DNA of 64,000 bases from Mobula hypostoma (lineage: Eukaryota): the NCBI RefSeq assembly GCF_963921235.1, contig NC_086108.1, positions 20,398,001 to 20,462,000 of the forward strand, given 5' to 3'. Every line of letters starts with the position of its first letter. Within the stretch, counting starts at the first letter, position 1. The position numbers and the translations under genes were made by a program. Below are positions 4,980 to 64,000 of this stretch, one piece after another. Below the pieces are notes generated by a model. That model saw only the letters and a list, made by a program, of their open reading frames with translations. It made no database searches and was not told the DNA's origin.

Positions 4980-7770
4980 TCAAACCCTGCCTCCCATATA
5001 AGCCCCCACCTTAGATTCCTCCATATACCTGTCTAGTAGTCTCTTAAACTTCATTAGTGTATCTGCCTCCATCACTGACTCAGGCAGTGCATTCCACGCA
5101 CCAACCACCCTCTGAGTAAAAAACCTTCCTCTAATATCCCCCGTGAACTTCCCACCCCTTACCTTAAAGCCATGTCCTCTTGTATTGGGCAGTGGTGCCC
5201 TGGGGAAGACGCGCTGGCTATCCACTCTATCTATTCCTCTTACTATCTTGTACACCTCTATCATGTCTCCTCTCATCCTCCTTCTCTCCAAAGAGTAAAG
5301 CCCTAGCTCCCTTAATCTCCGATCATAATGCATACTTTCTAAACCAGGCAGCATCCTGGTAAATCTCCTCTGTACCCTTTCCAATGCTTCCACATTCTTC
5401 CTATAGTGAGGTGACCAGAACTGGAACACAGTACTCCAAGTGTGGCCTAACCAGAGTTTTATAGAGCTGCATCATTACATCGCGACTCTTAAACTCTATC
5501 CCTCGACTTATGAAAGCTAACACCCCATAAGCTTTCTTAACTACCCTATCCACCTGTGAGGCAACTTTCAGGGATCTGTGGACATGTACCCCGAGATCCC
5601 TCTGCTCCTCCACACTATCAAGTATCCTGCCATTTACTTTGTACTCTGCCTTGGAGTTTGTCCTTCCAAAGTGTACCACCTCACACTTCTCTGGGTTGAA
5701 CTCCATCTGCCACTTCTCAGCCCACTTCTGCATCCTATCAATGTCTCTCTGCAATCTTTGACAATCCTCTACACTATCTACAACACCACTAACCTTTGTG
5801 TCGTCTGCAAACTTGCCAGCCCACCCTTCTACCCCCACATCCAGGTCGTTAATAAAAATCACGAAAAGTAGAGGGCCCAGAACAGATCCTTGGGGAACAC
5901 CACTAGTCACAATCCTCCAATCTGAACGTACTCCCTCCACCACCACCCTCTGCCTTCTGCAGGCAAGCCAATTCTGAATCCACCTCGCCAAACTTCCCTG
6001 AATCCCATGCCTTCTAGCTTTCTGAATAAGCCTACCATGTGGAACCTTGTCAAATGCCTTACTAAAATCCATATAGATCACATCCAGTGCACTACCCTCA
6101 TCTATATGCCTGGTCACCTCCTCAAAGAACTTTATCAGGCTTGTTAAACACGATCTGCCCTTCACAAAGCCATGCTGACTGTCCCTGATCAGACCATGAT
6201 TCTCTAAATGCCTATAGATCCTATCTCTAAGAATCTTTTCCAACAGCTTTCCCACCACAGACGTAAGGCTCACTGGTCTATAATTACCCGGACTATCCCT
6301 ACTACATTTTTTGAACAAGGGAACAACAGTCGCCTCCCTCCAATCCTCCGGTACCATTCCCGTGGACAACGAGGACATAAAGATCCTAGCCAGAGGCTCA
6401 GCAATCTCTTCTCTCGCTCGTGGAGCAGCCTGGGGAATATTCCGTCAGGACCCGGGGACTTATCTGTCCTAATGTATTTTAACAACTCCAACACCTCCTC
6501 TCCCTTAATATCAACATGCTCCAGAACATCAACCTCACTCATATTGTCCTCACCATCATCAAGTTCCCTCTCATTGGTGAATACCGAAGAGAAGTATTCA
6601 TTGAGGACCTCACTCACTTCCACAGCCTCCAGGCACATCTTCCCACCTTTATCTCTAATTGGTCCTACCTTCACTCCTGTCATCCTTTTTTTCTTCACAT
6701 AATTGAAGAATGCCTTGGGGTTTTCCTTTACCCTACTCGCCAAGGCCTTCTCATGCCCCCTTCTTGCTCTTCTCAGCCCCTTCTTCTTTCTTGCTTCCCT
6801 ATATTCCTCAATAGACCCATCTGATCCTTGCTTCCTAAACCTCATGTATGCTGCCTTCTTCCACCTGACTAGATTTTCCACCTCACTTGTCACCCATGGT
6901 TCCTTCACCCTACCATTCCTTATCTTCCTCACCGGGATAAATTTATCCCTTACATCCCGCAAGAGATCTCTAAACATCGACCACATGTCCATAGTACATT
7001 TCCCTGCAAAAACTTCATCCTAATTCACACCCGCAAGTTCTAGCCTTATAGCCTCATAATTTGCCTTTCCCCAATTAAAAATTTTCCTGTCCTCTTTGAT
7101 TCTATCCTTTTCCATGATAATTATAAAGGCCAGGGAGCGGTGGTCACTGCCCCCCAGATGCTCACCCACTGAGAGATCTGTGACCTGACCCGGTTCATTA
7201 CCTGGTACTAGATCTAGTATGGCATTCCCCCTGGTCGGCCTGTCAACATACTGAGACAGGAATCCATCCTGGGCACACTTAACAAACTCTGCCCCATCTA
7301 AACCTTTGGAGCTAATCAGGTGCCAATCAATATTAGGGAAGTTAAAGTCACCCATGATAACAACCCTGTTATTTTTGCACCTTTCCAAAATCTGCCTTCC
7401 AATCTGTTCCTCTGTGTCTCTGCTGCTACCAGGGGGCCTATAGAATACCCCCAGTAGAGTAACTGCTCCCTTTCTGTTCCTGACTTCCACCCGTATTGAC
7501 TCAAAAGAGGATCCTGCTACATTACCCACCCTTTCTGTAGCTGTAGTAGTATCCCTGACCAGTAATGCCACCCCTCCTCCCCTTTTTCTGCCCTCTCTAT
7601 CCCTCTTAAAGCACTGAAATCCAGGAATATTGAGAATCCATTCCTGCCCTGGTGCCAGCCAAATCTCTGTAATGGCCACTACATCATAATTCTATGTATG
7701 TATCCAAGCTCTCAGTTCATCACCTTTGTTCCTGATGCTTCTTGCATTGAGGTACACACATTTCAGCCCT
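4980..7770 (-). pseudogene. CR1 ORF2 (APE endonuclease + reverse transcriptase), frameshifted
   Basis: ORF pieces 7020-7679, 6270-6992, 5401-6378 and 4980-5429 are consecutive parts of one ORF2. Confidence 0.92.
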
Positions 7771-7895
7771 TCTACCTTACTGTCTTTACACCGTTTATTC
7801 TGCTTTCCTCAAAGCCTCTCTATATGTTAGATCTGGCTTTACTCCATGCACTCCTTTCACTGCTCCATCACTCTGGGTCCCATCCCCCTCGCAAA

Positions 7896-8831
7896 TTAGT
7901 TTAAACCCTCCCGAACCATGCTAGCAAACCTACCTGCAAAGATATTGCTCCCCCTCGAGTTCAGGTGCAACCCATCCAATCTGTACAGGTCCCACCTTCC
8001 CCAGAAGAGATCCCAGTGATCTAAAAATTTAAAACCCTGCTCCCTGCACCAACTCCTCAGCCACGCATTCAACTGCCATCTCCTCCAGTTCTTACCATCT
8101 CTGTCACGTAGCACTGGCAGCAATCCTGAAAACGTCACTCTTGAGGTCCTGTTCTTCAGCCTTCTGCCTAATTCCCGAAACTCACACTTCAGGACCTCAT
8201 CCCTTTTCCTGCCTATGTCGTTGGTCCCAACATGTATCACGACTTCTGGTTGCTGTCCCTCTCGTACCAGGATGTCGTGCATCTGGTCAGAGACATTCTG
8301 GACCCTGGCACCCAGGAGGCAACAAACCATGCGGGTGTCCTTCTCACGTCCACAAAATCTCCTGTCTGCTTCCCTGACTATAGTCTCCAATGACGACAGC
8401 TCTCCTCTTCTCCATCCCACCCTTCTGCACCACAGGGTCAGACTCAGTGCCGGAGGCCCTGCCACCGTGGCTCACACCTGGTCGGTCGTCCCCGCCAACA
8501 GTATCCAGGACGGTAAACATTATTCAGGGGAATGGCCACAGGGGTGCTCTGCACTACCTGTCTGCTCACCTTCGCTTTCCCCCCTCTGACTGACACCCAA
8601 CGACCTGCTTCCGACAGCCTAGGTGTGACTACCTCCCTGTAGCTCTCATCTATGACTGCCTCATTCTCCCTTATGAGTCAAAGGTCATCCAGCTGCTGCT
8701 CCAGATTCCTTACACTGTCTTCCAGATCGCCCAGCCGTATGCACTTCTGGCAGATGTGACTGTGGGAGAGGGGCGTTCCCCCAAGACTGCCACATCTCAC
8801 ATGAGAGGAACATCACCATCTCAGGAGACAT
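7896..8831 (-). pseudogene. CR1 ORF1: Cys/leucine-zipper N-terminus + SGNH esterase
   Basis: ATG at 8831 gives MSPEMVMFLSCEMW...HICQKCIRLGDLEDSVRNLEQQLDDL*. Downstream are VIHVGTNDIG and DGLHLN. Confidence 0.88.
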
Positions 8832-9322: not shown

Positions 9323-9997
9323 AAACTAAAGTTTTTGGGGGGGAATTCAGAGAAACCGTGAATTTCTTGGTTATTAGAGTCATCAAGTTGTATAGAATGG
9401 AAACAGGTTCTTCAGTCTGACTTGTCCAAGATGACCAAGATGCTAATCCCATTTTCCTGCATTTGGCCCATATCCCTGTATGCCCTTCCTAGCCATTAGC
9501 TGTCCAAGTTCTTGTTAAATACTATGATTGTGATTGTATCTCTCTCCACCAACTCGCATGGCAGCTTGTTCCATATATTCACCACCCTTTAGTGTGAAAA
9601 ATATTGCCCTTCAGATCCACATTAAATCTTTTCCCTCTCAACCCAAACTAGGTATATCTTCTCGTTTAGACTCATGTATCCTAGGAAAAAAATCTGTGAC
9701 CATCTACCCTCTCTCTGCCCTTCATAATTTTATAAACCTTTATAAGGTCACCCCTAGGCCTCTTACACTCCAGTGAGACCAGTCTCAGCCTATCCAACCT
9801 CTCCTTGTAATTAAAGCCCTGTGTTCCAGGCAACACCCTGGCGAATCACACAATATTCCATTGTCTTGTTCAGCTGCAACATGATAATCCATCTCTGGTA
9901 CTCAATACCCTTCCCTATGCAGGCAAGCAGGCTAAGTGCCTTCTGTGTTACCCTATTCATCTGAGTTGCCGTTTTTAGGCAGCTGTGAACTTGTACC

Positions 9998-10547
9998 ATG
10001 GTTTTCGGTTGGGCGCCAGATGCTCGGAGAGATTTGGTGGGGGGCGAGTGCCCGGCGTTTGGCCGGGGGGCCATGGTCGAGTGGTCAGCGACTTGGGCCG
10101 GCTCCCCCACCGGACTTAGTCTGGTGAGGAGAATGTGAGGACACCCAGCAGGACTGAAAAAAAACAAGACCTGACAAAGGGCGGATGAGCTCCTTGTGAG
10201 CCAATGGCCATCTACCATGGAAGAGATTAAAACCTCACCACCTATCTACGAATTGTATGCAATGCACCTAGTTAGAAGAGACATGATGAACTTGGGCGCT
10301 GCACCGTGTGCCTGGACCTGCCCAAGGCCTCCGCCTAAGGAAGGGCCGAGCTCAAAGATGCGGCCGCGGCTGGAGGCCGACATGGCCTCAGGCTCGAGTT
10401 TGGTGGGACGGCAGCGGGCGGTGCCAAGGTGGCCAGCGAGAACAAACTGGAGGAGAGGCTGTACTCGGTGCTGTCGCAAGATCGAAGAAGATGGAGGTGC
10501 ATAGCTGCCAACCCCGGATTCGGGACGGCACCCACTGACTGACTGAC
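9998..10547 (+). mobile_element. Non-autonomous RTE/RTE-X-like retroposon (5' UTR-like head + ORF 3' tail)
   Basis: Perfect 12-bp TSD TGAACTTGTACC at 9986-9997 and 10548-10559, and an (ACTG)n 3' tail. Removing 10296-10474 restores DMMNLAQDRRRWR, the RTE C-terminal AxDRxxWR motif. GC- and CpG-rich. Confidence 0.85.
10298..10474 (+). pseudogene. ZFTRAF1: Circularly permuted fragment of ZFTRAF1 (CYHR1) coding sequence
   Basis: 10441-10474 encodes [11 protein letters not shown]+T and 10298-10333 encodes GC+[11 protein letters not shown]. Joined end-to-start they give [22 protein letters not shown], which I recognise from memory as vertebrate ZFTRAF1/CYHR1. Confidence 0.85.
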
Positions 10548-11334
10548 TGAACTTGTACCCCAAGGTCCCTCTGTACATCAATGCTTCTGAAATCCCTGCT
10601 GTTTTCTGTGTCTATCTGGCCTGTGTTAGATGACCTAAAATATATTACCTTACATTAAATGGGCTAAATTCCATTTGTTATTGCTCTGCGCCCAGCTTTT
10701 CACATAATCTATGTCATTCCCTATTCTTAGGTAACACAAACACCAAATCTACAATTCCACCAATCTTCTTGTCATCAGCAGACATTCTCATTCAAGTCAT
10801 TTATATGTATGACAAACTACTAAAGTCCCAGCACCCTTCACTGCGGTACACCACTGGTTATATCTTTCCAGTCAGGAAAACAACCGCCCACCACTACCTT
10901 CCTGTTCCTATCATAAAGCCAATTTTGGATCCAGTTTGCCAAAATACCTGAGGCCTCATATACCCTAAAATTCTGGACAGCGTACCATGTAGGACCTTAT
11001 AAAAAGCCTTGTTAAAATTCAAGCATTCTACTTCTACTACCTAGCCTTTATTAATTTTCTCAATAACCTGCTCAAAATATTCAATCTGATTTGTAAGGCA
11101 GGATTAAGGCAAGACATTATTCCATACTGACTTCCTTTAATAATTTCCTGCCTTTTCATAAGTCAAATTCCTAAGATGTTTTCCCAATTGTATCCCTGCT
11201 ACTGATGTAAGGCACACTAGCCTGTAGTTTCCTGGCTTCTCTTTACTGCCTTTTTTGATTTTAGGAACAACATTAGCCAACTTTCAGTCTTCCAGTACTT
11301 CAATCATGGCTAATTGTCACCTGCCCTATTCTAC

Positions 11335-16593: not shown

Positions 16594-17207
16594 GCATTGA
16601 AAATGGTGGAAAGACAGGAGTGTCAGGGAGTGTTTCACTTTTTCAGGTTATCCTGCTTTTGACCTGTTTTTGTAATTACAATATTTTTGTAACTTCTCCA
16701 GCTGAGTTTCTGGTCTCCACCATTAACATCCTGATGTTTCTGTGATTGTGAATGAATGGATATAAGGATAATGCATTTCTTTTTCAGCTCAGCTCTTGTG
16801 GATTCATATTTAATTAATGATAGGGCATTGAAACACGCATCAAAATAAATAGAGCTAATTAACAGAAATCATGTTTCAAAATTAGAGGCATTGAGAACAT
16901 CTAACTACTACACACAATAACAATGCAAAATCAAAGGGAGAAAACTTACAGTTTGTAAAATTTATTTGTGATTTAGTATCATACTTTTATTTTCTATTTG
17001 TGCATTAGTACCATAGGAGAGATGTCAATCTAAAGGTTTAAAACTTCAACTAAAAAACAGATAGAAATCATATTCATTATTTACTGTCAAGCAAGTTGTA
17101 AACATGAGAAATTGAATTATATTAATCATGTTTAAAGTAAAAAAATATTAAAAATTTGACATTTTTCAGGATTTATTACAACTCTTGATGCAATGCTTAA
17201 TTCTTAC

Positions 17208-17849
17208 TGGCATGCTGGCCTTCATAACAAGGGGAATTGAGTATAAGAGCAAGGAGGTCCTTCTGCAGCTGCACAGGGCCCTGGTGAGACCACACCTGGA
17301 GTACTGTGTGCAGATTTGGTCTCCAAATCTGAGGAAGGACATTCTTGCTGTTGAGGGAGTGCAGCGTAGGTTCACAGGGTTAATTCCTGGGATGGCGGGA
17401 CCGTCATATGTTGAAAGATTGGAGCAACTGGGCTTGTATACTCTAGAATTTAGAAGGCTGAGAGGGGATCTTATTGAAACATATAAGATTGTTAAGGGAT
17501 TGGACACGCTGGAGGCAGGAAGCATGTTCCTGCTGATGGGTGAGTCCAGAACCAGAGGCCACAGTTTAAGAATTAGGGATAGGCTATTTAGAACAGAGTT
17601 GAGGAAAACTTTTTCACCCAGAGAGTGGTGGATATATAGAATGCTCTGCCCCAGAAGGCTGTGGAGGCCAAGTCTCTGGATGCTTTCAAAAAAGAGATGG
17701 ATAGAGCTCTTAAAGATAGTGGAATCAAAGGTTATGGGGATAAGGCAGGAACTGGATACTGATAGTGGATGATCAGCCATGATCACAGTGAATGGCGGTG
17801 CTGGCTCGAAGGGCCTAATGACCTACTCCTGTACCTATTGTCTATTGTC
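17208..17849 (+). mobile_element. Young 5'-truncated CR1
   Basis: ORF 17185-17772. Very similar to 27658-28300, with a (CTATTGT)n tail. Confidence 0.93.
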
Positions 17850-24773: not shown

Positions 24774-27700
24774 CTGTGGCAACGGGCGAGATTTAAGGAT
24801 GGTGTGTTGCCTCCCTGGTGCCGGGATCCAGAATGTCATGGACTGATTGCAGGGAATCCTCAAGAGTGAAGGTGAACATCCGGAAGTGGTGGTGTATGTC
24901 GGCACAAATGACGTGGGGAAGAAGAGGAAAGACATTCTACAGCGTGACTTCAGAGAACTCGGAAGAAGACTGAAAAGCAGGACTTCCAAGGTGGTTATCT
25001 GCGGTTTGCTTCCAGTTCCTCGTGCTGGAGTGGGCAAGAACAGGGAGATAATGGATCTGAATATGTGGCTGAGGAACTGGTGCAGGAAGCAAGGATTTAC
25101 ATTCTTGAACCATTGGGGTATGTTTCGGGGTAAGGATGAATTGTACAAAAGGGACGGGTTGCACCTTAATAAGCGGGGCACCAGCATTCTGGCAGGCAGC
25201 TTTGCCTCTGCAACACCGGTGTGTTTAAACTAAGTAGTGGGGGGAGGGGATGAACTGGAAATATAAGGATGGAGATAAACGAAAAGTGAGAATAAGAAAA
25301 GTTAAGAAAGACAGCAGAATCAGCAGAGCAGAAAGCTCAAGAGGGGATCGTACAGTGTGGCCAAGTGAAATAGGAATTGATATGGGAGGTGAGGGGAGTA
25401 ATGAATTAAAAGTATTATATATGAATGCACGGAGTATAAGAAATAAAGTGGATGAGCTTGAGGCACAGTTGGAAATTGGTAAGTATGATGTTGTGGGAAT
25501 AACAGAGACGTGGCTTCAAGTGGACAGGGCCTGGGAAATGAATATTCAAGGGTATACGTCCTATCGAAAGGACAGACTGATGGGCAGAGGGGGTGGGTTA
25601 GCTCTGTTGTTGAGGAGTGATATTCAGTCCTTTGCAAGGGGGGATATAGAATCAGGAGACGTAGAGTCAGTATGGATAGAACTGAGAAATTCTAAGGGTA
25701 GAAAGACCCTAATGGGAGTTATCTACAGGCCCCCAAACAGTAGTCTGGATGTAGGGTGTAAATTGAATCAAGAGTTAAAATTGGCATGTCACAAAGGTAA
25801 TGCTACAGTTGTTATGAGGGATTTCAACATGCAGGTAGACTGGAGGAATCAGGTTGGTACTGGACCCCAAGAAAGGGAGTTTGTGGAGTCCCTCCGAGAT
25901 GGATTCTTAGAACAGCTTGTGCTGGAGCTTACCAGAGAGAACGCAATTCTAGATTTAGTGTTGTGCAATGAACCGGATTTGATCAGGGACCTCGAGGTAA
26001 AAGAGCCATTAGGGGGTAGTGACCATAATATGATAAGTTTTAATCTACAATTTGAGAGGGAGAAGGGAAACTCGTAAGTGTCAGTATTACAGTTGAACAA
26101 AGGGAACTATGGTGCTATGAGGGAGGAGCTGGCCAAAGTTCAATGGAACAATACCCTAGCAGGAATGACAGTGGAACAGCAATGGCAAGTGTTTCTGGGA
26201 ATAATGCGGAAGGTGCAGGATCAGTTCATTCCAAAGAGGAAAAGAGATCCTAAGGGGAGTAAGGGGAAGCCGTGGCTGACAAAGGAAGTAATGGACAGTA
26301 TAAAAATAAAAGAGAAGTATAACATAGCAAAGACGAGTGGGAAGCCAGAAGATTGGGAAACTTTTAAAGAGCAACAGAAGGTAACTAAAAAGGCAATACA
26401 TGGAGAAAAAATGAGGTACAAAGATAAACTAGCTAAGAATATAAAGGAGGATAGTAAAAGCTTCTTTAGGTATGTGAAAAGGAAAAAAATATTTAAGACC
26501 AAAATTGGGCCCTCGAAGACAGAAACGGGTGAATTTATTATGGGGAACAAGGAAATGGCAGACAAGTTGAACAGGTACTTTGGATCTGTCTTCACTAGGG
26601 AAGACACAAACAATCTCCCAGATATAATAGTGGCCAAAGGACCTAGGGTAATGGATGAACTGAAGGAAATTTATATTAGGCAGGAAATGGTGTTGGATAG
26701 ACTGTTGGGTCTGAAGGCTGATGAGTCCCTGGGACCTGATGGTCTGCATCCCAGGATACTTAAGGAGGTGGCTTTAGAAATTGTGGATGCATTGGTAATC
26801 ATTTTCCAATGTTCTATAGATTCAGGATCAGTTCCCGTGGATTGGAGGGTGGCTAATGTTGTCCCTCTCTTCAAGAAGGAAGGAAGAGAGAAAACAGGGA
26901 ATTATAGACCAGTTAGCCTGACGTCGGTGGTGGGAAAGATGCTGGAGTCATTTATAAAAGATGAAATTACGACACGTCTGGATAGCAGAAACAGGATCGG
27001 TCCGAGTCAGCATGGATTTACGAAGGGGAAATCGTGCTTGACTAATCTTCTGGAATTTTTTGAGGATGTAACTATGAAAATGGACAATGGAGAGCCAGTG
27101 GATATAGTGTACCTGGACTTTCAGAAAGCTTTTGATAAAGTCCCACATAGGAGATTAGTGGGCAAAATTAGGGCACATGGTATTGGGGGCAGACGGCTGA
27201 CATGGATTGAAAATTGGCTGGTTGACAGAAAACAAAGAGTAGCGATTAATAGGTCCTTTTCAGAATGGCAGGCGGTGACCTGTGGGGTACCGCAGGGTTC
27301 AGTGCTGGGACCGCAGCTGTTTACAATATATATTAATGACTTAGATGAGGGAATTAAAAGTAACATTAGCAAATTTGCCGATGACACAAAGCTGGGTGGC
27401 AGTGTGAAATGTGAGGAGGATGTTATGAGAATGTAGGGTGACTTGGACAGGCTAGGTGAGTGGGCAGATGCATGGCAGATGCAGTTTAATGTTGATAAAT
27501 GTGAGGTCATCCACTTTGGTGGTAAGAACAGGAAGGCAGATTATTATCTAAATGGAGTCGAGTTAGGAAAAGGGGAAGTACAGCGAGATCTAGGTGTTCT
27601 TGCACATCAGTCACTGAAAACAAGCATGCAAGTACAGCAGGCAGTGAAGAAAGCTAATGGCATGCTGGCCTTCATAACAAGGGGAATTGAGTATAAGAGC

Positions 27701-28301
27701 AAAGAGGTCCTTCTGCAGTTGTGCAGGGCCTTGGTGAGACCACACCTGGAGTACCGTGTGCAGTTTTGGTCTCCAAATTTGATGAAGGACATTCTTGCCA
27801 TTGAGGGAGTGCAGCGTAGGTTCACAAGGTTAATTCCTGGGATGGCGCGACTGTCATATGTTGAAAGATTGGAGCGACTGGGCTTGTATACTCTGGAATT
27901 TAGAAGGCTGAGAGGGGATCTTATTGAAACATATAAGATTATTAAGGGATTGGACACGCTGGAGGCAGGAAGCATGTTCCCACTGATGGGTGAGTCCAGA
28001 ACCAGAGGCCACAGTGTAAGAATAAGGGGTAGACCATTTAGAACAGAGCTGAGGAAAAATTTTTTCACCCAGAGGGTGGTGGATATATGGAATGTTCTGC
28101 CCCAGAAGGCTGTGGAGGCCAAGTCTCTGGAAGCTTTCAAGAAAGAGATGGATAGAGCTCTTAAAGATAGCAGAATCAAAGGTTATGGGGATAAGGCAGG
28201 AACTGGATACTGATTGTGGATGATCAGGCATGATCACAGTGAATGGCAGTGCTGGCTTGAAGGGCCGAATGGCCTACTCCTGCACCTATTGTCTATTGTC
28301 T
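24774..28301 (+). mobile_element. Young CR1 LINE, 5'-truncated inside ORF1
   Basis: Esterase (VGTND, DGLHLN), a complete ORF2 and a (CTATTGT)n tail. AACTT is duplicated at 24769-24773 and 28303-28307. Confidence 0.95.
25250..28213 (+). pseudogene. CR1 ORF2 (APE + RT), one frame with two internal stops
   Basis: ORFs 25250-26077, 26078-27436 and 27443-28213 are all in the same frame. Confidence 0.93.
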
Positions 28302-31772: not shown

Positions 31773-32803
31773 AACTGAAGAAAGAGCTAGTAAGAGATTT
31801 AAAAGTGGGAGGGGGAGGGGGAGATTCAAAATGATAGGAGAAGACAGGAGGGGGAGGGATGGAGCCAAGAGCTGGACAGGTGATTGGCAAAAGGGATACG
31901 AGAGGATCATGGGACAGGAGGCTCAGGGAGAAGGAAAAGGGGGAGGGGGGGAAAAACCCAGAGGATGGGCAAGGGGTATAGTCAGAGGGACAGAGAGAGA
32001 AAAAGGAGAGTGAGAGAAAGAATGTGTGTATATAAATAACGGATGGGGTACAAGGGGGAGGTGGGGCATTAGCAGAAGTTAGAGAAGTCAATGTTCATGC
32101 CATCAGGTTGGAGGCTACCCGGACGGGATATAAGGTGTTGTTCCTCCAATCTGAGTGTGGCTTCATCTTTACAGTAGAGGAGGCCGTGGATAGACATGTC
32201 AGAATGGGAATGGGATGTGGAATTAAAATGTGTGGCCACTGGGAGATCCTGCTTTCTCTGGTGTTCAGCAAAACGATCTCCCAGTCTGCGTCGGGTCTCG
32301 CCAATATATAGAAGGCCACATCAGGAGCACCGGACGTAGTCTATCACCCCAGCCGACTCACAGGTGAAGTGTCGCCTCACCTGGAAGGACTGTCTGGGGC
32401 CCAGAATGGTGGTAAGAGAGGAAGTGTAAGGGCATGTGTAGCACTTGTTCCGCTTACAAGGATAAGTGCCAGGAGGGAGATCAGTGGGGAGGGATGGGGG
32501 GGACAGGGGCGTAAGGAAGCAATCCCTGCGGAAAGCTGGGGGGCGGGGGAGGGAAAGATGTACTTAGTTGTGGGATCCCGCTGGAGGTGGCAGAAGTTAC
32601 GGAGAATAATGTGTTGGACCTGGAGGCTGGTTGGGTGGTAGGTGAGGACCAGGGGAACCCTATTCCTAGTCGGGTGGCGGGAGGATGGAGTGAGAGCAGA
32701 TGTGCGTGAAATGGGGGAGATGCGTTTGAGAGCAGAGTTGATGGTGGAGGAAGGGAAGCCCCTTTCTTTAAAAAAAGAAGATATCTCCCTTGTCCTGGAA
32801 TGG

Positions 32804-33041
32804 AAAGCCTCATCCTGAGAGCAGATGCGGCAGAGACGGAGGAATTGCGAGAAGGAGATGGCACTTTTGCAAGAGACAGGGTGAGAAGAGGAATAGTCCA
32901 GATAGCTGTGAGAGTCAGTAGTTGAAAAGCCTCATCCTAAAAGCAGATGCGGCAGAGACGGAGGAATTGCGAGAAGGGGATGGCATTTTTGCAAGAGACG
33001 GTGAGAAGAGGAATAGTCCAGATAGCTGTGAGAGTCAGTAG
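32804..33041. repeat. ~120-bp tandem duplication inside the Penelope ORF
   Basis: 32804-32921 is repeated at 32926-33041 with a few differences. Confidence 0.9.
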
Positions 33042-36206: not shown

Positions 36207-36378
36207 TTTAACAGAACTCTTTGAAGATACAGTTAGATTCAGCAACAGACCAGCCCTGATCCACCCTGATCATCCTTAATGGAATCAGGTAGTTTAACAG
36301 AACTCTTTGAAGATACAGTCAGATCCAGCAACAGACCAGCCCTGATCCACGCTGATCATCCTTAATGGAATCAGGTAG
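36207..36378. repeat. 86-bp tandem duplication
   Basis: 36207-36292 and 36293-36378 differ at about three positions. Confidence 0.92.
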
Positions 36379-36944
36379 TTAACTCAAATCTCCACAGTGC
36401 TTCACCCAGTCACTAAACTGTGCAAGACTGCAGGTAAATTGAGTGATAACATCATTAGTTCCTCTACTGGAGGAGATATGATTGTCCTGCAAATTCCTAG
36501 CCCCACCAATGCAGAGATACTGAGTTCTGATTTGCTCTAGTAGTTCGTTAACTGGTCCAGCTAGATTCTGAATAGCGGTGAATCCCTTTCTCACACTTGG
36601 TTGATGGTGGTGGGACTCAATGATGGTAACACTCTAGATGGGGAGATCATTTGTTGGAGTCAATTACTGATCCAATATATATTTTATGTGAATGCTTCTT
36701 ACCAAAATGAGTGTCATCTTGGGGCTGGCATGATTGAGTTCCTAGCACCACAATCATCTTCCTTAAATTCCAATAAGGAATTTTCCCTTTGATGTTCAGT
36801 GAATTCATTTTAACAGTCCCTTGATGCCATACCTAAACAAATGCTGCCCGGATGTCATGTTACCTTTGGAACCCAGACTTTACTTGTTTTTTGCATGATG
36901 ATTTCCACCATTACAACATTCTTCGGCAATCTAAATTCTTGAAA

Positions 36945-55928: not shown

Positions 55929-58900
55929 ACTAGACACTAGACACCAGAACACTACAGCACAGTACAGGCTCTTTGGCCCTCGATGTTGTGCTGATCCATA
56001 TATTCCTTTAAAAAAAATGTACTAAACGCACACTACCCCGTAACCCTCTATTTTTCTTTCATCTATGTGCCTGTCCAAGAGGCTCTTAAATACCTCTAAC
56101 GTTTTAGCCTCCACCACCATCCCTGGCAAGTCGTTCCAGGCACCCACAACCCTCTGTGTAAAAAACTTACCCCTGATGTCTCTCCTAAACTTCCCTCCCT
56201 TAACTTTGTACATATGCGCTCTGGTGTTTGCTATTCATGACCTGGGAAACAGGTACTGGCTATCCACCCTATCTATGCCTCTCATAATCTTGTAGACCTC
56301 TATCAAGTCCCCTCTCATCCTTCTATGCTCTAAAGAGAAAAGCCCCAGCTCTGCTAACCTTGCCTCATAAGACTTGTTTTCCAATCCAGGCAACATCCTA
56401 GTAAATCTCCTCTGCACCCCCTCCATAGCTTCCACATCCTTCCTATGATGAGGTGACCAGAAGCCAGAACTGAGCACAATACTCTAAGTGTGGTCTAACC
56501 AGAGATTTGTAGAGTTGCAACATGACCTCTCTACTCTTGAACTCAATCCCCCTATTAATGAAGCCTAGCATCCCACAGTGTTCTGCGGCGACACTGGTGC
56601 CAAGCTGTATGGGTCCTAATGCCTTTCCCTTGGACAACATCGGCGTCGTGGAGAGGGAAGACTTGTAGCATGGGCAACTGCTGGTCTTCCATACAACCTT
56701 GCCTAGGCCCGCGCCCTGGAGAGTGAAGACTTTCCAGGTGCAGATCCATGGTCTCGCAAGACTAACGGATGCCTTTATAAGCATCCCATAGGCCTTCTTA
56801 ACTATCCTATCAACCTGTGCAGCGACCTTGAGGGATGTATGGATTTGAAACCCAAGGTCCCTCTGTTCATCTACACTCTTAAGTAACCGAACATTAAGCC
56901 TGTACTCAGCATTCTGGTTTGTCCTTCCAAAATGCATCACCTCACACTTATTCGGATTGAACTCCATCTGCCACTTTTCTGCCCAACTCTGCATCCTGTC
57001 TATATCCTCTTGTAACCTTTGACAACCTACAGCTCCATCCACGACTACTCCAATCTTCGTGTCATCCGCAAACTTACTCACCCATCCTTCCGCCTCTTCA
57101 TCCAGGTCATTTATAAAAATCACAAAGAGCAGGGGTCCCAGGACAGACCCTTGCGGCACTCCACTAGTCACTGACCTCCAGGAAGAATACTTTCCTTCCA
57201 CTACTACCCTCTGCTTTCTTCCTTTAAGCCAATTTTTTATTCAAACAGCCAAGGTTCCACTCATCCCATGCCTCATAACCTTCTGGATGAGTCTCTCATG
57301 GGGGACCTTGTCAAATGCCTTGCTAAAATCCATGTAGACCACATCTACCTACCTACTGTCATCAATTTCTTTTGTTATCTCTTCAAAAAACTCAATTAGG
57401 CTCGTGAGGCATGACCTTCCCTTCACAAAGTCACGTTGACTATCCTTGAGTAGACTGTACTTCTCCAAGTGCTTGTAGATCCTTTTCTTAAGGATCCTTT
57501 CCAATAGTTTGCAGACCACCGACGTAAGACTCACCAGTCTATAGTTCCCAGGATTCTGCCTATTACCTTTTTAAAACAAGGGAACTACATTTGCTATTCT
57601 CCAATCCTCCGGCACCTCCCCTGCAGCCAAAGAGGATTCAAAGATCATAGCTACTGCTCTAGTGATCTCTTCTCTCACTTCCCACAGCAAACTGGGGTTT
57701 ATCACGTCCGGCCCTGGGAACTTATCAATCTTGTTGTTTTTAAAAAGATCCAACTCTTCTTCTTCCTTAATCTCCACATTGTCCAGCACACAGGCCAGTT
57801 CTATTTTGACCTCACCCTGATCAAGGTCCTTTTCACTTGTGAATACTGAAGCAAAGTATTCATTTAGGACCACCCCAACCTCCTCCACCTCCAGGCACAT
57901 GTTGCCTTCTTTATCCTTTAGCGGCCCCACCTTCATTCTTGTCATCCTTCTGTTCTTCACATACGCACAGAACGCCTTGGGGTTCTCCTTAATCCTACAA
58001 GCCAAGGCCTTCTCATGCCCCCTTCGAGCTCTCCTAATTCCTTTATTAAGCTCCTTCCTGGCTACCCTATATTTCTCATGAGCCCCTCCTGCATCCTGCT
58101 TCTTATATCTAAGATATGCTTCCTTCTTCCTCTTGACAAGTTGCCTCACGTGTTTCATCAGCCAAGGTTCCCTTTCCTATCATTTTTTCCTTGTCTCAAT
58201 GGGACAATCCTATCCTAAACTCAGCACAAGTGGTCCCTAAACTTCCTCCACATTACTTCTGTGTTTTCACCCTTGAACATCTGTTTCCAATTTACTCTTG
58301 CTAGTTTCTGCCTCATTCCTTCATAGTTAGCCCTTTCCCAGTTAAGCACTTTCCCATTTTGTCTGTTTTTATCCTTTTCCATAGCTATGCTGAAGCTATG
58401 GGAGTTGTGGTCATTCTCACCAAAACGCTCCCCCACCAAGAGGTCTGCCACCTGACCAGGTTCATTACCCAGAACTGGATCCAGTATGGCCTCTCCTCTC
58501 GTCGGCCGGTCCACATATTGTGTTAGGAGTGCTTCTTGAACACACCTGACAAATTCAGCCCCACCTATTCCCCTTGCAGTCTGGAGGTGCCAGTCAATAT
58601 GAGGGAAGTTGAGATCATCCATAACTACAACCCTGTATTTCCTGCACCATTCTAAAATCTACCTGCTTATCTGCTCCTCGGTGTCCCGAGGGCTATTTGG
58701 GGGCCTATAAGACTACTCCCAGCACAGTGATTGAACCCTTCCTATTTCTGACTTCCACCCGCACCGACTCAGTGGACACTTCCTCTGCAGCGTCCTCCCT
58801 TTCTATAGCCCTGATACTATCCTGAAAATGCTACTCCCCCCCTTTTCTACCTCCCATCCTATTCCTTTTAAAACACCTAAACCCCTGCATCAGCCAATCC

Positions 58901-59572
58901 TGCCCTTCCTCCAGCCAAGTTTCTGTAACAGCCACAACATCGTAGTTCCACGTACTGATCCATGCTCTAAGTTCATCCCCTTTTTTCCTAATACTCCTAG
59001 CATTGAAATAGACACATTTCAACCCCTCTAACTGGCTACATTTATGTTTTGTCCCCGCCTGTCCTTCCTCACCAACTCAGAACACATAGCATCATGCCCT
59101 TGTCCTTCTGCCCTAATCTCTGCACTCACATTCTGATTCCCAACCCCCTGCCAAGCTAGTTTAAACCCTCCCCTACAGCTCTAGAAAACCTGCCCACCAG
59201 GATATTGGTCCCTTTCCAATTCAGGTGCAGCCCATCCTTTTTGTACAGGTCAGACCTTCCCCAGAAGAGATCCCAATGATACAGAAATCTGAACCCCTGC
59301 CTCCTGCACCAACTCTTCAGCCACGCGTTCGTCTGCCATAACTTCCGGTTCCTACCCTCTCTGACTCATGGCACAGGCAGCAATCCCGAGATTACCACCC
59401 TTGAGGTCCTACTTTTCAACTTCTTTCCTAACTCCCGATATTCCTTCTTCAGGACCTCATCCCTACTCCTATCTATGTCATTGGTCCCCACGTGGACCAC
59501 GACATCTGGCTGCTCACCCTCTCTCCTAAGAATACCGAGAACTCGATCCGAGATATCACGGACCCTGGCACA
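55929..59572 (-). mobile_element. CR1 LINE, 5'-truncated in the ORF1 esterase, ORF2 disrupted
   Basis: ACTAGACACTAGAC tail, RT (FADD), APE (NARSI, ETWL) and HVGTND. Confidence 0.94.
56579..56779 (+). mobile_element. 5'-truncated copy of the RTE-tailed SINE, inserted in the CR1 RT
   Basis: TSD AGCATCCCAYAG at 56567-56578 and 56780-56791. Homologous to ~30348-30540. Confidence 0.88.
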
Positions 59573-61199: not shown

Positions 61200-64000
61200 T
61201 GGCGGGAAGATTTGCGAGGGCTACTGAGGTGACTTTAAACTAGAATGGTTGGGGGGTGGGGATCAAATTAAAGAGACTAGGAGAGAGGAGGTTAGTTCAC
61301 AACAGAGGGATGGGAACAAGTGCAGAGAGACAGAGGGGTGTAAAATGAGGGTAGAAGCGAGAAGTAGTAAGGTGAAAAGTGAAAGTGGCAGGCCAGCAAA
61401 TCCAGGGCAAAAATCAAAAAGGGCCACTTTTCAACATAATTGTATGAGGGCTAAGAGTGTTGTAAAAGCAAGACTGAAGGCTTTGTGTGTCAATGCAAGG
61501 AGCATTCGTAACAAGGTATGAATTAAAAGTGCAGATTGTTATTAATGAATATGATATAGTTGGGATCACAGAGACATGGCTCCAGGGTGACCAAGGATGG
61601 GAGCTCAATATTCGGGGATATTCAATATTCAGGAGGGAGAGACATGAAAGAAAAGGAGGTGGGGTAGCATTGCTGGTTAGAGAGGAGATTAACACAATAG
61701 AAAGGAAGGACATTAGCCGGGAGGATGTGGAATCAATATGGGTAGAGCTGCATAACACTAAGGGGCAGAAAACACTGGTGGGAGTTGTGTACAGGCCACC
61801 TAACAGTAGTAGTGAGGTTGGGGATGGTATTAAACAGGAAATTAGAAATGTGTGCAATAAAGGAACAGCAGTTATAATGGGTGACTTCAATCTACATGTA
61901 GATTGGGTGAACCAAATTGGTAAGGGTGCTGAGGAAGAGGATTTCTTGGAATATATGCGGGATGGTTTTTTGAACCAACATGTCGAAGAACCAACTATGG
62001 AGCAGGCTATTCTAGACTGGGTATTGAGCAATGAGGAAAGGTTAATTAGCAATCTTGTCATGAGAGGCCCTTGGGTAAGAGAGACCATAATATGGTGGAA
62101 TTCTTCATTAAGATGGAGAGTGACATAGTTAATTCAGAAACAAAGGTTCTGAACTTAAAGAAGGGTAACTTTGAAGGTATGAGACGTGAATTAGCTAAGA
62201 TAGACTGGCAAATGACACTTAAAGGGTTGACGGTGGATATGCAATGGCAAGCATTTAAAGATCGCATGGATGAACTACAACAATTGTTCATCCCAGTTTG
62301 GCAAAAGAATAAATCAGGGAAGGTAGTGCACCTGTGGCTGACAAGGGAAATTAGGGATAGTATCAATTCCAAAGAAGAAGCATAGAAATTAGCCAGAAAA
62401 AGTGGCTCACCTGAGGACTGGGAGAAATTCAGAGTCCAGCAAAGGAGGACAAAGGGCTTAATTAGGAAAGGAAAAGAAGATTATGAGAGAAAACTGGCAG
62501 GGAACATAAAAACTGACTGTAAAAGCTTTTATAGATACGTGAACAAAAAAAGATTGGTTAAGACAAATGTAGGTCCCCTACAGACAGAAACAGGTGAATT
62601 GATTATTGGGAGCAAGGACATGGCAGACCAATTGAATAACTACTTTGGTTCTGTCAAAGGAGGACACAAACAATCTTCCGGAAATGGTAGGGGACCGAGG
62701 GTCCAGTGAGATGGAGGAACTGAGGGAAATACATGTTAGTAGGGAAGTGGTGTTAGGTATTGAAGGGATTAAAGGCAGATAAATCCCCAGGGCCAGATGG
62801 TCTGCATCCCAGAGTGCTTAAGGAAGTAGCCCAAGAAATAGTGGATGCATTAGTGATAATTTTTCAAAACTCTTTAGATTCTGGACTAGTTCCTGAGGAT
62901 TGGAGGGTGGCTAATGTAACCCCACTTTTTAAAAAAGGAGGGAGAGAGAAACCGGGGAATTATAGACCGGTTAGCCTAACATCGGCGGTGGGGAAAATGC
63001 TAGAGTCAGTTATCAAAGATGTGATAACAGCACATTTGGAAAGCCGTGAAATCATCGGACAAAGTCAGCATGGATTTGTGAAAGGAAAGTCATGTCTGAC
63101 GAACCTCATAGAATTTTTTGAGGATGTAACTAGTAGAGTGGATAGGGGAGAACAAGTGGATGTGGTATATTTGGATTTTCAAAAGGCTTTTGACAAGGTC
63201 CCACACAGGAGATTAGTGTGCAAACTTAAAGCACACGGTATTGGGGGTAAGGTATTGATGTGGATAGAGAATTGGCTGGTAGACAGGAAGCAAAGAGTGG
63301 GAATAAACGGGACCTTTTCAGAATGGCAGGCAGTGACTACTGGGGTACTGCAAGGCTCAGTGCTGGGACCCCAGTTGTTTACAATATATATTAATGACTT
63401 AGATGAGGGAATTAAATGCAGCATCTCCAAATTTGCGGATGACACGAAGCTGGGCGGCAGTGTTAGCTGTGAGGAGGATGCTAAGAGGATGCAGGGTGAC
63501 TTGGATAGGTTAGGTGAGTGGGCAAATTCATGGCAGATGCAATTTAATGTGGATAAATGTGAGGTTATCCACTTTGGTGGCAAAAACAGGAAAACAGATT
63601 ATTATTTGAATGGTGGCCGATTAGGAAAAGGGGAGGTGCAATGAGACCTGCGTGTCATTATATATCAGTCATTGAAAGTGGGCATGCAGGTACAGCAGGC
63701 GGTGAAAAAGGCGAATGGTATGCTGGCATTCATAGCAAGAGGATTTGAGTACAGGAGCAGGGAGGTACTACTGCAGTTGTACAAGGCCTTGCTGAGACCA
63801 CACCTGGAGTATTGTGTGCAGTTTTGGTCCCCTAATCTGAGGAGAGACATCCTTGCCATGGAGGGAGTACAAAGAATGTTCACCAGATTGATTCCTGGGA
63901 CGCCAGGATTTTCATATGATGAAAGACTGGATTGACTAGGCTTATATTCGTTGGAATTTAGAAGATTGAGGGGGATCTTATTGAAACGTATAAAATCCTA
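61200..64000 (+). mobile_element. CR1 LINE (ORF1 end + disrupted ORF2), running off the window
   Basis: AGRFARATEVTLN* ORF1 end, APE at 61487-62128 and RT at 62760-63644 with FADD. Confidence 0.94.

Follow-up and report, generated by a model that had tools for sequence, protein, structure and literature searches.

The retroposon copy and its ZFTRAF1 piece

The window analysed here is a 64,000-nucleotide stretch of contig NC_086108.1 of Mobula hypostoma. It carries one copy of a non-autonomous element of 550-600 bp that ends in a (CTGA)n run. The element is a mosaic of a 5' part, a rotated piece of the host gene ZFTRAF1 (CYHR1) and a LINE tail. The following features were assigned to the window copy:

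9986-9997, plus strand: 5' target-site duplication (TSD), an exact 12-nt direct repeat of 10548-10559
9998-10547, plus strand: non-autonomous non-LTR retroposon copy, slightly 5'-truncated; other copies reach 20-46 nt further 5'
9998-10297, plus strand: GC-rich 5' part without LINE homology and without a consistent reading frame
10072-10217, plus strand: module common to a second repeat family of ~465 bp, 76-78% identity
10298-10337, plus strand: ZFTRAF1 half A, the 3' portion of the captured segment and start of the RING-like region; 36/36 identical to native in the family majority, 39/40 in the window copy
10334-10337, plus strand: last four bases of half A, native with one substitution, or filler
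10338-10474, plus strand: ZFTRAF1 half B, the 5' portion of the captured segment, in sense; 136/138 identical, majority versus native
10358-10360, plus strand: private ATG in half B; AAG in the majority of copies
near 10404-10409, plus strand: private 1-nt deletion in half B, a minority state among the copies
10475-10547, plus strand: 3' tail from an RTE-like LINE, the last 21 codons of the LINE open reading frame; 92-97% identity to LINE 3' ends
from 10535, plus strand: (CTGA)n end, the 3' terminus of the element
10540-10542, plus strand: LINE-derived stop codon inside the tail
10548-10559, plus strand: 3' target-site duplication, an exact 12-nt repeat of 9986-9997

Comparison with the native exon identified 10298-10474 as a sense-strand, circularly permuted piece of ZFTRAF1 coding exon 1. 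Descent from the first coding exon of this gene had been proposed from the sequence alone and was confirmed by protein matches as well as by comparison with native exon 1. The 47-residue translation of half B, taken from a copy with an intact frame (L022), was searched against longer proteins. ZFTRAF1/CYHR1 of one sawfish and two skates were the sole matches (3 among 152 candidates), the best of them covering 98% of the query at 67% identity. A search of the source genome (3.48 Gb, 200 contigs) with the sawfish protein yielded 1235 candidates, of which 102 were scored. Four strong coding exon matches placed the native gene on the minus strand of contig C5 at 227.93-228.09 Mb. The other 98 matches among those scored were weaker, and all of them cover residues ~43-113 and represent copies of the element.

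Native exon 1 (L034) extends from the start codon to a GT donor and contains both halves in colinear order and directly abutting. The re-ordered piece thus has its counterpart in the animal's own ZFTRAF1 locus on contig C5. In native coordinates half B occupies 30-167 and half A 168-203, with neither gap nor overlap between them, which confirms the suggestion that the two halves were swapped without the loss of a base. What was captured is coding sequence from inside exon 1, starting ~190 nt past the native start codon; this GC-rich exon has a GC content of 0.72 and an observed/expected CpG ratio of 0.88. In the protein, the residues encoded by half B precede the RING-like region, while in the element half B is placed after half A.

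The family majority, taken per column from 30 copies, agrees with the native exon at 36/36 positions of half A and 136/138 positions of half B. With 172/174 identical positions in total, a chance resemblance is excluded. The window copy itself matches the native exon at 126/138 positions of half B, and a blastn alignment extends its half A by four bases to 39/40 identical positions. A 26-mer spanning the junction in native order, with up to 3 mismatches allowed, has a single genomic match, namely in ZFTRAF1 itself. By this search, colinear or multi-turn retrocopies of the captured segment are absent genome-wide, and the native gene contains no tandem duplication. An arrangement inherited ready-made from the gene, by rotated order or by tandem duplication, is therefore not present; the native halves are colinear and their order is unique. 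The permutation is real, comprises exactly one unit, and has the ZFTRAF1 gene of the own lineage as its source.

Two features of the window copy do not extend to the family. The 1-nt frameshift described in the sequence-only reading is indeed present, and it is private to a minority of copies: of 30 copies, 23 have a half B of 142 nt, five (the window copy among them) one of 141 nt, and two one of 143 nt. As an ancestral trait it was rejected, 142 nt being the commonest length. The ATG at 10358-10360 was likewise rejected as a start codon, since the majority of copies have AAG and the corresponding native stretch is internal coding sequence.

A fixed module of a retroposon family

With the 550-bp element as query, 2447 first-look candidates were obtained, and 40 of the 41 scored matches were near full length with 90-92% identity, the window copy included. 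Both halves in rotated order were present in all copies fetched (30/30). For counting, 26-mers were matched genome-wide with up to 2 mismatches, and the reversed patterns used as controls gave 0 matches in each case. The inner junction between the halves was found 704 times on many contigs, the end of the 5' part (10267-10292) 710 times and the tail 1109 times. An assembly artefact or a chance resemblance has practically nothing in its favour next to a junction that recurs in this number against an empty control and a majority that is nearly identical to the native exon; we consider its probability negligible.

Among the first 20 exact tail matches on contig C1, 16 span the whole insert, three are 5'-truncated inside it, and one is the LINE itself (L070). 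The first 20 exact matches of the 5'-part 26-mer all continue through the insert into the tail. An insert-free element, defined as the end of the 5' part followed after 0-30 nt by the start of the tail, gave 0 genomic matches; this pattern consists of exact short motifs, which a single-copy or diverged progenitor would escape. Copies with the insert are thus many, and the insert-free form was not found in this genome.

Divergence from the majority was determined for the 30 best matches to the window copy, a set biased to young copies, and amounts to 2.6% at non-CpG and 16% at CpG sites. The non-CpG values of the modules in the same set are similar, with 2.1% for the insert, 2.9% for the 5' part and 2.5% for the tail. 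Since the insert has diverged like its flanks, the piece was already in the founder before the burst. The rotated ZFTRAF1 piece is confirmed as a constant component of the family, which has at least 700 members. This agrees with the earlier proposal of a family trait amplified by retroposition: beside the 704 junction matches, all sampled copies that are long enough carry the insert. Parts of the stretch occur in 20 of the 24 sequencing runs listed, which come from 10 studies and include none of RNA. The fraction of shared words was 0.67 for organism A, 0.56 for organism B and 0.25-0.40 for organisms C-F, the latter values being no evidence of distribution.

Exact flank repeats of at least 8 nt were observed in 12 of 30 copies compared to 6% of 578 mismatched flank pairs. 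The 5' ends vary among the copies, and many copies are 5'-truncated. No tRNA, 5S, 7SL or other Rfam head was detected in full-length copies (Rfam E <= 0.1; ARAGORN), so that the head with internal Pol III promoter that defines a SINE in the strict sense (tRNA, 7SL or 5S) was not found. The LINE 3' end, target-site duplications, 5' truncation, high copy number and lack of own coding capacity are those of a LINE-mobilised non-autonomous retroposon. As a side observation, the copies L088 and L090 represent a subfamily that lacks ~30 internal nt at about element bases 40-69, where the 5' region is rich in G. The 5' ends of truncated copies (L056, L067, L098, L100, L103) accumulate at this G-run as well, at element bases 68-74.

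Homology to the LINE is confined to the last 73 bases of the element, beginning with the first base after the insert, with 92-97% identity to the LINE copies L074-L087; comparison with LINE copies revealed none 5' of the insert. Because LINE homology starts at the edge of the insert, the element is a three-part chimera and not an interrupted tail. The assumption that the piece had been integrated into an existing LINE-derived tail has to be abandoned accordingly. The ZFTRAF1 piece lies in sense relative to the reading frame of the LINE tail, on the same strand. How the same tail looks in the LINE itself can be seen in L070, a 5'-truncated, insert-free copy in which the end of the open reading frame runs into the identical tail and which has its own target-site duplication.

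The partner LINE family comprises 328 first-look candidates with ~95% identity. Its stop codon lies inside the (CTGA)n tail, leaving practically no 3' UTR. The copies examined are truncated to 0.4-0.7 kb (L070:131-520 minus, L078:1430-2080 minus, L085-L087), and a full-length copy was not obtained; after extension by 6 kb, each of three copies still proved to be cut back to ~700 bp. The C-terminal 235 amino acids match no Pfam family. They have 97 relatives, typically proteins of ~1000 aa with a PF03372/PF14529 endonuclease and a PF00078 reverse transcriptase, which sit on contigs of ~3.3 kb; a few of them are named 'Craniofacial development protein 2'. This combination of endonuclease and reverse transcriptase in ~1000 aa we take to be the profile of the RTE clade, and by these motifs the partner is RTE-like.

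For the 5' part, no conserved long open reading frame was found. The search for its parent gave no LINE match and no stable open reading frame, and only a 145-nt module is common to another repeat family (76-78%). This second family of ~465 bp has at least 1962 first-look candidates with 92-95% identity (L044:1503-1967; L006:1096-1497; others in L045-L052) and is without a tRNA or Rfam head; a short CTGACTGA-like motif occurs near its 3' end. At L006:1096-2080 a member of the ~465-bp family is interrupted by an oppositely oriented copy of the element beside its CTGACTGA-like motif, which may hint at a target preference for microsatellites that resemble the tail.

An open frame of ~122 aa (121-140 aa) spans all three modules and is intact in 12 of 37 copies (L003, L004, L009, L012, L019, L022-L024, L035, L036, L041, L042), without a conserved ATG. 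It passes through the 5' part, half A in a shifted frame, half B in the native frame and the end of the LINE open reading frame in frame. No relatives were detected among 45 candidates in a search of database proteins of 67-214 aa, by which occurrence in further annotated species was gauged indirectly. We infer that the ZFTRAF1 piece is a passenger; nothing suggests a service to the element.

Further repeats were noted in the window. Dispersed pairs occur at 5521-8311 and 56782-59571 (71%), 26426-27939 and 62491-63996 (78%), and 17205-17849 and 27655-28300 (93%). These old dispersed repeats coincide with blocks of strong GC skew, and the element at 9998 lies inside one C-rich block. Local tandem duplications were observed at 32801-33041 (units of ~121 nt, 94%) and 36207-36380 (units of ~88 nt, 97%).

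Breakpoints and candidate routes of origin

An exact rotation by a single unit needs a circular template or an equivalent of it, and the breakpoints were inspected for the way in which such a template may have been closed. On the 5' side of the inner junction, native identity begins in the middle of exon 1, and on the 3' side it ends 4-8 nt upstream of the exon-1 donor. The junction may lie at 10337|10338 rather than at 10333|10334. In this case all 178 ancestral bases are native and filler is unnecessary. The parsimonious reading of the alignment would thus be a native segment of 178 nt that ends 4 nt before the donor, was joined bluntly and received one substitution in the founder. The alternative would be four filler bases, of which three match the native exon by chance, with a probability of ~0.05 by our own arithmetic.

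Under the parsimonious reading, neither the inner junction nor the join to the LINE tail shows microhomology, and both are blunt. For a 3-nt repeat to fit at the inner junction, both a substitution and a 2-nt deletion have to be assumed. The outer right join between insert and LINE tail contains neither intron nor promoter sequence. Folding of the native segment gave no stem that would join the two breakpoints, and the fold is unexceptional (z = -1.23).

The observed junction equals no product of the exon-1 donor with an AG-preceded site. The product of the donor with an internal AG differs from it by one substitution and a 2-nt deletion. That the junction falls without an obvious splice boundary, as the sequence-only reading had put it, is correct for the break in the middle of the exon and only narrowly so for the 3' break, given the short distance to the donor. 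Inspection of the breakpoints thus revealed a junction that is not a canonical splice junction and that, in the parsimonious reading, lacks microhomology.

Because the inner junction lies off the canonical splice sites, canonical back-splicing is rejected. Back-splicing normally leaves out first exons, and here the 5' break would require an acceptor in the middle of the first coding exon, where there is no natural one and the pyrimidine tract is poor. The observed junction moreover differs from the predicted splice product. What speaks for a back-spliced ZFTRAF1 circRNA that was reverse transcribed is the closeness of the 3' break to the donor and of the donor-to-internal-AG product to the observed junction, together with the non-colinear order, which is the signature of circRNA-derived pseudogenes (PMC4897178). 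Copies of the mouse circRFWD2 pseudogene are likewise multi-copy and associated with retroelements (PMC4897178). Overall, we regard this route as very improbable.

As origin of the founder we tentatively prefer, at somewhat less than an even chance, RNA template switching that produced a three-part chimeric cDNA, over the capture of a DNA circle. Target-primed reverse transcription by an RTE-like LINE enzyme would start on the LINE's own 3' end and copy 73 nt. The enzyme would then jump to ZFTRAF1 exon-1 RNA, either a non-canonical circle or a linear mRNA with a jump back downstream, and would travel exactly one round of this template. It would stop at its entry point, where the stretch would be covered by the enzyme's own cDNA or the circle be nicked. 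With the next jump to a third RNA the 5' part would be added. The resulting locus would be transcribed and its LINE tail recognised by the RTE machinery, giving at least 700 copies that carry the rotated piece along. We infer the joins at the RNA or cDNA level as well as the once-around mechanism.

Several observations argue for template switching. The sense strand of the gene is the strand of the LINE frame, as expected of RNAs copied in series, although orientation as evidence gives only 2:1 odds. The position of the insert at a module boundary is produced by a jump by construction and only rarely by random insertion. Consistent with this route are also the failure to find an insert-free form and the blunt outer right join, as well as the target-site duplications, the 5' truncations and an insert divergence that matches the flanks. 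LINE-1 chimeras with cellular RNAs exhibit a strong sense bias, with 98.3% for U6 (10.1101/2025.02.02.635956), and double template jumps leading to tripartite chimeras are described (PMC2104539). In addition, non-colinear pseudogenes are possible via reverse transcription of open-ended structured RNAs with adjacent ends (PMC4897178).

Against template switching stands that the junction lies off splice sites, so that the usual formation of RNA circles is inapplicable. The absence of a stem joining the breakpoints in an unexceptional fold also counts against it. The module boundary would be accounted for equally well by a DNA fragment taken up where a truncated LINE insertion has its 5' junction. 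MicroDNAs are small circles enriched for GC-rich 5' exons, and the 178-bp size of the piece and its origin in a GC-rich, CpG-island-like 5' exon fit them.

Capture of such a circle is accordingly the main alternative, possible though in our estimate somewhat less probable than template switching. A microDNA of ~178 bp from ZFTRAF1 exon 1 would have been opened once and ligated into the future master locus. The recipient site would be either a pre-existing element or, most plausibly, a LINE insertion with heavy truncation, at whose 5' junction the circle would serve as filler; the recipient locus would then have become a transcribed, retroposition-competent master. The exact permutation by one unit (AB to BA) from a unique source and a junction without use of splice sites are in favour of this route. 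Heritable eccDNA-mediated insertions with non-colinear split mapping are reported in a 2026 preprint, where 82 of 327 filtered human insertions were recognised in this way (10.64898/2026.09.03.749254). The lack of microhomology at the inner junction in the parsimonious reading speaks against a DNA circle; terminal microhomology is given there for only 28% of the eccDNA-mediated insertions (10.64898/2026.09.03.749254). Random integration into a pre-existing element of ~400 bp is unlikely to have hit the exact edge of LINE homology, a position that is explained if the circle was captured at the 5' junction of a LINE. The sense orientation would be a 1-in-2 coincidence, and an insert-free element was not found. 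The earlier conclusion that the absence of splice sites favours a DNA circle holds as far as it counts against a back-spliced circRNA. It does not hold over other routes at the RNA level, which the position at a module boundary and the sense orientation fit at least as well.

A formation without any circle appears improbable. Two independent jumps or DNA joins would have taken adjacent pieces in swapped order, or a colinear capture would have been tandemly duplicated and then trimmed. Chimeras from multiple jumps do exist (PMC2104539), and open-ended structured RNAs can yield non-colinear junctions (PMC4897178). The outer ends of the piece, however, abut to the base in the native gene, a coincidence of ~1 in a few hundred. 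Copies in native order or with more than one unit are absent as well, the native-order 26-mer (up to 3 mismatches) occurring only the once.

Returning to template switching, its most specific version is that an RTE-type enzyme copied a small, non-back-spliced circular or self-looped mRNA fragment once, stalled at its own cDNA and jumped, so that one event with three templates would have founded the family. In this complete form we consider it rather unlikely, less so than the routes called improbable above.

Known systems and significance

Similar to the element, template-switch chimeric retrogenes are same-orientation fusions with the LINE 3' end last, one pair of target-site duplications and blunt joins (PMC2104539; 10.1101/2025.02.02.635956). 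Unlike in ordinary chimeras of this kind, the middle part is circularly permuted here, the partner LINE is RTE-like and not L1, and the family has at least 700 copies. An origin of the element's 5' part from a cellular transcript, which would complete the analogy, is putative.

With circRNA-derived pseudogenes the element shares non-colinear host-gene sequence, multiple copies and a link to retroelements (PMC4897178). Their junctions are exon-exon junctions at canonical sites, whereas the junction of the element lies within a single first exon and off splice sites (PMC4897178). With 178 nt the piece is also far shorter, and it forms an inner part of a non-LTR retroposon. Germline insertions of eccDNA resemble it in the AB to BA mapping to a unique source (10.64898/2026.09.03.749254). 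The small size and the GC-rich 5' exon source are shared with microDNA. The insertions of the preprint are single and mostly within 10 Mb of their source (10.64898/2026.09.03.749254), in contrast to the dispersed retroposon family without microhomology observed here.

LINE-dependent SINEs of the stringent type are, like the element, short, non-coding and abundant, with the tail of a partner LINE, target-site duplications and 5' truncation; the element differs from them in having no tRNA, 7SL or 5S head. A composite element carrying a host exon is also known in SVA with the MAST2 exon. There the exon is a 5' transduction, in contrast to the internal and rotated host exon described here. In the main text of open-access literature, no non-LTR retroposon family with a rotated host exon as internal module was found. 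The signature and each of the candidate mechanisms are already known; new is their combination with family-wide amplification, small size and exactness.

Rotated host sequence is an accepted footprint of circular intermediates, as in circRNA-derived pseudogenes and eccDNA insertions. To our knowledge, such cases are single insertions or small sets. The footprint described here is unusually clean, with 178 nt in base-exact permutation, a source exon that this genome carries at 98-99% identity and an identifiable partner LINE. This offers a tractable system for asking if circular templates are copied by LINE enzymes or if, instead, LINE insertion sites take up small DNA circles. If the copying of an RNA circle is true, the copies would document that such copying by LINE enzymes occurs in nature, and new SINE-like families could arise from such mosaics. 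Hundreds of near-copies of a conserved ZFTRAF1 coding segment are present in both orientations and could feed putative antisense or small-RNA pathways. The family shows the assembly of new non-autonomous families from unrelated parts.
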